From: a virus
Taxonomy: Duplodnaviria; Caudoviricetes
Length of the DNA stretch: 64,000 nt
IMG/VR virus record: IMGVR_UViG_3300008262_000055
Strand: one strand, 5' to 3'
The notes beneath the pieces were generated by a model. The model saw only the letters and a list, made by a program, of their open reading frames with translations, had not been told where the DNA came from and did no database searches. Positions 42,489-43,591 of this stretch are shown here, one piece after another (position 1 is the first letter of the stretch; the number at the start of each line of letters is the position of its first letter). A program made the position numbers and the translations under genes.

Positions 42489-43382
42489 ATGCCAGATTTT
42501 GATCCAAGTAAGTTTCAGTCTCAACAAAATGCTGCTCCAGCAGTTAATCCTCTAGCGGCGTTTTTTAGACAACCAAAGATCTATGTTTCTCTGCCGTCAA
42601 AAGGTGAATTTTATCCGGAAGGGTCGTTAAAAAAGACCACTAACAACGAATATCCTGTGTTCGCCATGACGGCCAGAGATGAATTGTTATTTAAAACCCC
42701 AGACGCATTGATGAACGGGGTAGCAACTAGAGAAGTTATCAGTAGTTGCATCCCTAACATTTTAGATCCTTGGAAGATTCCAAGTCTTGATGTTGATGCG
42801 GTGTTATCAGCAATTAGGATTGCCACATATGGCGAGGAAATGGAAGTTTCTGTTAGATGCCCGCAATGTGAAAATCTTAATGACTCTATGGTTGATCTAC
42901 GTGATGTGTTGGATAGATTAAACAAAATTAATTTTGATACCAAAGTTGAAATTGGTTCAGACATGATTGTGTATCTGCGTCCGATGACTTACGAAGAAAT
43001 TACTAAAACTGCGTTGAAAGCGTTTGAGCATCAGCGAATTTTTCAAGTAATCAACGATGATACAATTGAAGAGCAGGAAAAATTAAAAATTTTCCAAGAA
43101 AGTTTTATTAAGTTAACCGATTTAACTATAGATACTGCTGTAAAGTGTATTACAAAGATTGAAAGTTCTGCTGGTATGACTGAAGATCCTGCTTTTATAA
43201 AAGAATTTTTACAAAAGACTGATAAGTCTGTGTTTGAACAGATTAACACCGCAGTGAGCAAAACTAGAGAAACTGGAAACCTTAGCAGCTTTCATAGTAA
43301 ATGCCAAAAATGCGAACACGAATGGGACGTTGAGCTTACTATGGACCAATCGGATTTTTTCGGCAACGGCTTTCGACGTTAA
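42489..43382 (+). CDS. gp26: Baseplate hub assembly protein (gp26-like)
   Basis: NPLAAFFRQPKIYVSLPS.G.FY, MTARDEL, IRIATYGE, two CxxC pairs (CPQC, CQKC), and C-terminal SDFF. Confidence 0.7.
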   Translation: MPDFDPSKFQSQQNAAPAVNPLAAFFRQPKIYVSLPSKGEFYPEGSLKKTTNNEYPVFAMTARDELLFKTPDALMNGVATREVISSCIPNILDPWKIPSLDVDAVLSAIRIATYGEEMEVSVRCPQCENLNDSMVDLRDVLDRLNKINFDTKVEIGSDMIVYLRPMTYEEITKTALKAFEHQRIFQVINDDTIEEQEKLKIFQESFIKLTDLTIDTAVKCITKIESSAGMTEDPAFIKEFLQKTDKSVFEQINTAVSKTRETGNLSSFHSKCQKCEHEWDVELTMDQSDFFGNGFRR

Positions 43383-43414
43383 GTATCCCCGAGGTATTAG
43401 CCGAGTCGAAAGCC
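43355..43414 (+). promoter_or_regulatory. Candidate -1 programmed ribosomal frameshift signal
   Basis: In-frame T TTT TTC (43355-43361), 6-nt spacer, then GGCTTTCGAC (43368-43377) pairing perfectly with GTCGAAAGCC (43405-43414). Confidence 0.7.
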
Positions 43415-43591
43415 CTTGATGAACAGGCAAAGCAGATCAAACTGGAAGCTATGCGTTCAGTTTGGTATATGCGTGGCGGATTGTCATTTGCCGAAGCCAT
43501 GAACCTCAGCTGGGACGAAAGAGAGTTAGTCCTTGAGATAGTCAAGGACAACATGGATATTACTAAGAGTTCTGGACTACCGTTTTTTTAA
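43355..43591 (+). CDS. gp51-like baseplate/tail assembly module in the -1 frame of the gp26-like gene; probably expressed by frameshift (an internal ATG at 43451 gives only 46 aa)
   Basis: Not in the track. The -1 frame is open 43334-43591 and reads ...LSIPEVLAESKALDEQAKQIKLEAMRSVWYMRGGLSFAEAMNLSWDERELVLEIVKDNMDITKSSGLPFF. Confidence 0.75.
   Translation, partial: FFRQRLSTLSIPEVLAESKALDEQAKQIKLEAMRSVWYMRGGLSFAEAMNLSWDERELVLEIVKDNMDITKSSGLPFF

Follow-up and report, generated by a model that had tools for sequence, protein, structure and literature searches.

A probable -1 frameshift at a conserved TTTTTTC in the gp26/gp51-like tail-assembly gene of a freshwater jumbo myovirus

The stretch of DNA analysed here (64,000 nt; hereafter the window) belongs to a jumbo myovirus of fresh water, as yet uncultured, and holds a tail-assembly gene whose 0-frame stop codon lies within an open -1 frame. 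The question raised by this arrangement is whether the gene specifies one protein or two. From the sequence alone, an earlier note had proposed a complete -1 frameshift signal leading to products of 297 and 367 aa. Our answer is that two proteins, one short and one long, are very probably made from the gene, by a one-base slip at a conserved TTTTTTC; to the more precise reading, a programmed -1 ribosomal frameshift in a single tail/baseplate-hub assembly chaperone gene of the PF12322 family, we give a probability of about 0.8. The occurrence of slippage, its ribosomal nature and its efficiency are what we infer from the anatomy of the signal, its conservation, its coding signature and the gp26/gp51 homologies, all of them read in the sequences themselves. 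The elements concerned are the following.

42489..43382, + strand: short chaperone gene, gp26-like ('TAC-N'), 297 aa, with its TAA stop at 43380-43382
43355-43361, + strand: slippery heptamer T TTT TTC, read directly, in X XXY YYZ phase, with 0-frame codons gaT TTT TTC (D F F)
43362..43367, + strand: spacer of 6 nt between heptamer and stem, read directly
43368..43414, + strand: stem-loop with a perfect 10-bp stem, arms GGCTTTCGAC (43368-43377) and GTCGAAAGCC (43405-43414)
43361..43591, + strand: -1 frame extension, gp51-tail-like ('TAC-C'), 76 codons plus TAA, a start-less coding frame with a match to the gp51-tail profile

Direct reading confirmed all the coordinates proposed for the heptamer, the spacer, the stem and the -1 frame (43334-43591). 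The -1 frame opens at 43334, just past a TGA (43331-33), and runs to a TAA at 43589-91; its first ATG is at 43451, and no ATG, GTG or TTG is found in it between the 43331-33 stop and that position. The 297-aa protein ends in ...S D F F G N G F R R. The predicted long form has the junction ...SDFF|RQRL... and 291 + 76 = 367 residues, so that the arithmetic of the two products is also right. The 10-bp stem is lengthened by inner pairs (43378-43382 with 43397-43401 and 43384-43387 with 43393-43396), and folding of the 71 nt from the heptamer on gave -24.1 kcal/mol (z = -3.3), a stability reached by 0 of 200 shuffled sequences. By itself, the heptamer is within chance expectation: TTTTTTC occurs 19 times in the window, against 24 ± 5 expected. 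The case for a signal therefore rests on comparison.

A blastn search of the locus against the phage collection gave no match, which means that relatives are visible at the protein level only. The 297-aa protein is about 30% identical to those of Atu_ph07, Phosso, RaK2, PBECO4, GAP32, BF, MIJ3 and SCTP-2, and 26% identical to that of RAS14. Eight isolate genomes and 40 IMG/VR loci yielded 35 distinct junction sequences (30-99% protein identity); adding the cyanophages S-WAM1 and S-SSM6a, and Aeh1, makes 38 distinct single-gene relatives. The alignment of 3' ends suggested in the earlier note bore out the signal: T TTT TTY stands at the homologous site in all 38, and in each of them the -1 frame is open at the heptamer. 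Among the 35 jumbo-phage and metagenomic sequences, 34 have T TTT TTC in phase at an xFF site, the remaining one (RAS14) having T TTT TTT, i.e. a T7 run. In these 35 the 0-frame stop comes 3-33 nt past the heptamer, and the -1 frame, which opens at a median of 9 nt upstream of the heptamer (0 nt in locus L028), is 71-80 codons long and ends in a conserved ...GLPFF. The two residues encoded by the heptamer, F290 and F291, are invariant among relatives, and the 0-frame codon right after it varies freely. Two controls concern codon choice: the other FF dipeptides of the same genes are encoded by the slip-compatible TTT TTY in just 15 of 41 cases, and the conserved C-terminal PFF of the extension is encoded by seven codon combinations. 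A chance origin of the signal was rejected on the basis of this conservation across relatives.

Homopolymer runs are error-prone, and the long product resembles a single-gene protein, gp51. A sequencing error in the run, or a recent frameshift mutation in a continuous gp51-like gene, is nevertheless highly unlikely to account for the arrangement: the same T6 run and the same frames are found in 49 independent assemblies, from isolates and metagenomes, as well as in DNA contigs from independent lake samples. Besides, none of the 120 closest database homologues of the 297-aa protein, nearly all of which are 280-328 aa long, has the two ORFs fused in frame. The concordance of the 49 assemblies led us to reject sequencing error.

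A more direct indication of translation came from the pattern of codon changes in the region that lies past every 0-frame stop and ends before the first ATG of the -1 frame in the window (43451). The ratio of synonymous to nonsynonymous changed codons was 141:75 in the -1 frame, versus 21:177 and 17:176 in the other two frames. The stretch preceding the ATG thus evolves as coding in the -1 frame only, and it would therefore be translated there without a start codon of its own. These figures bear on the view that there is no recoding at all, the downstream ORF encoding a separate small protein, made by its own initiation or by termination-reinitiation, and TTTTTTC being kept for the sake of its two phenylalanines. 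Several facts fit such a view. GenBank has a small ORF annotated in Phosso, Atu_ph07, BF, PBECO4, SCTP-2, RAS14 and S-SSM6a, some lineages have ATGA or TAATG overlaps, and the cyanophage gp51 was taken as a short free-standing protein by Sullivan et al. (2010). An ATG overlaps or adjoins the 0-frame stop in Phosso, Atu_ph07, PBECO4 and loci L037 and L039; in these lineages a separate small protein could also arise there. As the sole explanation, it meets with a series of objections. The first start codon in the window lies 90 nt into the conserved -1 coding region, in a stretch under clear purifying selection, and 14 of the 35 sequences have no ATG, GTG or TTG from the upstream -1 stop to position +30; there is likewise no usable start codon in the -1 extension of Aeh1. 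In the -1 frame, the codons are conserved from the very first one past the heptamer. The synonymous sites of the heptamer are frozen, whereas the same residues vary elsewhere, and phages with a full-length gp51 gene lack the slippery codons, some of them even the FF dipeptide. We consider a separate protein without recoding to be improbable.

The RNA downstream of the heptamer was compared with the rest of the same genes. The 66 nt past the heptamer had a mean ΔG of -15.8 kcal/mol (median rank 0.02), when other segments of these genes averaged -9.0 kcal/mol, and in most relatives the 5' arm begins 5-8 nt past the heptamer. The 3' partner of the stem varies from clade to clade, and structure is weak in a few relatives (BF, RaK2, L027 and L036). 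Within the subclade of the window (5 sequences), nine pairs of the 10-bp stem are invariant and one shows a compensatory change from A-U to U-A, which exchanges Thr..Ser for Ser..Thr in the protein; 92% of the cells pair, versus 28-46% with the partners slid. The compensatory changes for which the earlier note had proposed to look are thus present as one pair in these five sequences, but the pairing differs among clades. Strain variants in contigs from RNA libraries fall in the loop and the spacer, none in the heptamer or the stem arms.

Slippage could also take place during transcription, RNA polymerase adding an extra U on the T6 run so that a fraction of the mRNAs is fused and the same two proteins are made. 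The conserved element is indeed a homopolymer run, and one relative, RAS14, has T7. Efficient transcriptional slippage usually needs a run of about 8-9, but the run is only 6 T in 34 of 35 sequences and is never lengthened. A stable structure at the canonical spacing of 5-8 nt, which slippage of the transcript does not need, is enriched. Contigs spanning the junction, from RNA libraries and from DNA, have T6 and no indel, with the proviso that contigs hide minor variants and are no proof of transcription. Lastly, the passage of the PRFect paper that paraphrases earlier work on T4-like phages gives two separate genes as the 'other mechanism'. We regard slippage of the polymerase as unlikely, and the programmed ribosomal frameshift remains our preferred reading.

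The nature of the protein supports a role in tail assembly. The 297-aa protein matches PF12322 ('T4_baseplate') with an E-value of 4.5e-16 and 59.6 bits (Pfam gathering score, 24.5 bits) over profile positions 4-218 of 219, and all of its 34 aligned relatives match it too. T4 has two proteins of this family, gp26 (208 aa), which is the bare domain, and gp51 (249 aa), which is the domain followed by a 48-aa tail. By these matches and by phrog_150 ('baseplate hub'), the gene belongs to the T4 gp26/gp51 family. The short form of the window covers positions 10-233 of the 282 of phrog_150, T4 gp26 positions 14-235 and T4 gp51 positions 13-280; on this profile, the short form stops where T4 gp26 stops. 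The profile of the reconstructed long form was aligned with that of gp51 by hhalign, and they matched from end to end (47-342 against 31-247 of 249). Taken alone, the 76-aa extension matched no Pfam family and no annotated PHROG; against the gp51 tail it scored 23.1, when 150 column shuffles gave 9.2 ± 2.1 with a maximum of 19.1. At the level of profiles, the C-terminal tail of T4 gp51 is the homologue of the -1 extension. Both labels, gp26-like and gp51-like, that had been given to the ORFs from sequence alone are borne out by these comparisons. The 297-aa protein also carries a split zinc ribbon, formed of two CxxC motifs (Cys124/127 and Cys272/275), and its AF2 model has a pLDDT of 79.5.

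The number of PF12322 genes was then counted in the complete genomes of relatives. There is one in Atu_ph07, RaK2, PBECO4, Phosso, a 270-kb relative, S-WAM1, S-SSM6a and Aeh1, and there are two in T4. In S-WAM1, S-SSM6a and Aeh1, the single gene has T TTT TTC 3 nt before its stop, with a gp51-tail-like -1 ORF. The positions, in the segments used for the comparison, are the following.

L057 1863-1869: heptamer of S-WAM1
L058 1878-1884: heptamer of S-SSM6a
L059 1899-1905: heptamer of Aeh1
L049 3803-4429, - strand, and 4480-5229, + strand: T4 genes 26 and 51, respectively

The slippery codons are absent from the homologous site in all seven two-gene phages, i.e. T4 and six other Straboviridae; T4 gp26 terminates in ...KEFFELL, encoded G TTC TTT G, and some of the seven lack the FF. 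The comparison of single-gene with two-gene phages indicates that the same protein pair may be obtained either from one gene with a frameshift or from two genes. Together with the heptamer (38/38) and the coding signature (141:75), these two-gene controls provide strong comparative support for the frameshift that the earlier note had proposed.

The likeness to T4 is therefore one of family, of a gp26-like end on the short form and of a gp51-like tail on the long form. T4 gene 26 also adjoins hub/tape-measure-type genes of opposite strand, as does the window gene. The differences are that T4 and the six other Straboviridae have two diverged paralogous genes and no slippery site, whereas in the window a single gene would make both forms, so that their N-terminal 291 residues would be identical, and that the window protein is larger (297 versus 208 aa) and its tail longer (76 versus 48 aa). 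The T4-like cyanophages are closer in organization, in that their only PF12322 gene has T TTT TTC close to its stop and the -1 ORF resembles the tail of gp51, but their heptamer is 3 nt before the stop and their tail is plainly gp51-like. The tail of the jumbo clade is more diverged (WYMRGG...ER...GLPFF), its match to gp51 being found at the profile level only.

The end of T4 gp26 (...EFFELL) is like the start of the gp51 tail (...VFKLL), which suggests that T4 gene 26 was truncated from a fused long form and is not an ancestral short gene. A wider proposal is tentative, and depends on whether the 2022 work on T4 gp26 and gp51 (see below) left out the jumbo myoviruses of the RaK2/Atu_ph07/PBECO4/MIJ3 type, together with the large phages related to them in fresh and marine waters. 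In that case, one gene with a frameshift could possibly represent the original condition across the T4 superfamily, and much the most frequent one, and the 26/51 pair of T4 a derived duplication of the long form, already fused.

The earlier note had likened the gene to the tail chaperones of the lambda G/GT type. In lambda (gpG/gpGT) and P2 (gpE/E+E'), a small tail-assembly gene next to the tape-measure gene yields two proteins with a shared N-terminus, through a -1 frameshift close to its 3' end; P2 has a comparable heptamer, rich in T. The short form of lambda-type tail assembly chaperones (TACs) binds the tape measure and the extra domain of the long form binds the tube protein. These chaperones are reportedly dealt with in the work of Levin (1993), of Christie (2002) and of Xu, Hendrix and Duda (2004). 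The window gene is like them in its two predicted products, which would share their N-terminus by virtue of a -1 frameshift at the 3' end, and in the tape-measure-like genes adjacent to it. It is unlike them in being opposite in strand to these genes and not between tube and tape-measure genes, and in encoding a protein two to three times larger, with a zinc ribbon. Sequence and fold gave no sign of kinship. None of the Pfam TAC families was matched up to E = 1 by 34 members of the window's family, and no PDB chain matched the window protein by sequence. In the comparison of predicted structures that had been advised, made here with the AF2 model, Foldseek found no credible match among solved structures (best E-value 0.35) and VIA-align found generic helical hairpins only (Z < 8), though a missing fold match to known TACs does not prove that the folds differ. 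Since no homology was detected by sequence or fold, membership in the lambda G family was dropped. What stands of the claim is that it fits the published identification of gp26 and gp51 as the T4 chaperones (see below): the mode of expression would be like that of lambda G/GT, and the family is that of gp26/gp51 instead. By analogy, we infer a division of work between the two forms like that of lambda G and GT.

The course of events proposed is as follows. Most ribosomes would translate 42489-43382 and make the 297-aa short form, the equivalent of T4 gp26. For a minority, the stem-loop that begins 6 nt further on would cause a pause, after which both tRNA-Phe would slip back by one base on U UUU UUC and pair again; reading would continue in the -1 frame as far as 43591 and give the 367-aa form, with 76 additional residues that would be the counterpart of the gp51 C-terminal tail in T4. 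As bacterial slip sites go, U UUU UUC does not rank with the most efficient. The short form would act in bulk, coating the tape-measure or hub protein, and the scarcer long form would join this protein to a further component of the tail; the 'catalyst' label given to gp51 in GenBank records would suit a long form made in small amounts.

The neighbouring genes were considered in the same light. They are laid out as follows.

30.8-37.3 kb, - strand: head module
37340..42411, - strand: two paralogous genes (862 and 827 aa), presumed tape-measure-like, divergent from 42489..43382

The 862-aa and 827-aa proteins are 27% identical over 553 aa (E-value 5e-60), and only the 862-aa copy has an M23 peptidase domain. 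Their genes are in tandem with a TAATG overlap, and the N- and C-terminal regions are common to both. As to their description as tape-measure-like in the earlier note, it agrees with the annotation of the RaK2 homologue as TMP-like, but the TMP_2 match of the 862-aa protein is below threshold and BLASTP showed no similarity between this protein and T4 gp29; the two genes may encode tape measures, a weak identification from sequence. No tail tube gene was found within the 64-kb window, the further genes of which include gp46/47-like and gp55-like ones and, from 53 kb onward, baseplate genes.

The principle of such a frameshift had been presented as undescribed for T4-like phages, and in this the earlier note was mistaken: it is already published. 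According to two later papers that cite Vladimirov, Gautam and Davidson (Virology 2022, PMID 34826709), this work identified T4 gp26 and gp51 as the T4 tail assembly chaperones TAC-N and TAC-NC. The passage in the PRFect paper says that, in some T4-like phages, frameshifting is replaced by two TAC genes, of which one is short and the other long and fused; the one in the phage Adele paper speaks of poly-T -1 slippery sequences in the TAC-N genes of T4-like phages. Poly-T -1 sites in these genes are cited in PMC12846349. What may be new is the extension to jumbo phages of the RaK2/Atu_ph07 type: no mention of ribosomal frameshifting was found in the jumbo-phage literature searched, and none of the sampled jumbo-phage GenBank records has a frameshift annotated. 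In these records, the locus is split into a 'baseplate hub' gene and an orphan small ORF, often from an internal ATG, or the second frame is omitted. For gp26, 'baseplate hub assembly chaperone' is a name already in use in GenBank, and a gp51 homologue is entered there as 'tape measure protein assembly chaperone'.

Two older puzzles may find their explanation here. Sullivan et al. (2010; PMC3037559) described the gp51 of cyanophages and of marine vibriophages as lacking the first ~200 residues, and Aeh1 as lacking gp51, with no mention of frameshifting. Aeh1 would have been scored so because its extension has no start codon. A frameshift from gene 26, if it takes place as the sequences indicate, explains both the truncated gp51 of cyanophages and the apparent lack of gp51 in Aeh1. 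For the whole jumbo-phage clade, the annotation of a core tail-assembly gene would be corrected. The use of frameshifting in some phages and of gene duplication in others to make the same protein pair would also amount to a natural experiment on the ratio of chaperone forms.

Some minor observations may be added. The small ORFs downstream of the hub gene in BF (L003 2367-2546) and PBECO4 (L004 2334-2543) fall in phrog_18291, of unknown function; the profile of this family starts 12 residues into the conserved -1 extension, which indicates that it was built from N-terminally truncated annotations. Downstream of the locus, a 144-aa ORF (45117-45551, - strand) matches the homing-endonuclease PHROGs phrog_7363 and phrog_314, plus phrog_447, and adjoins the sole long non-coding stretch nearby (44665-45116). 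At 1962-27176 (- strand) there is a series of four giant ORFs (1835-2156 aa), next to small ORFs on either side that match tail-fibre PHROGs; the giant ORFs presumably encode fibre or whisker-type structural proteins of the jumbo virion. Lastly, words sampled from positions 43000-43700 of the window were found at or near 100% in lake-water and 'fungus metagenome' runs of several studies, and strains related to it, with about 91-97% identity, occurred in two metatranscriptome libraries of freshwater or aquatic origin. The presence of the locus in the lake-water runs and of related strains in the aquatic libraries indicates that this phage lineage is widespread in fresh water.
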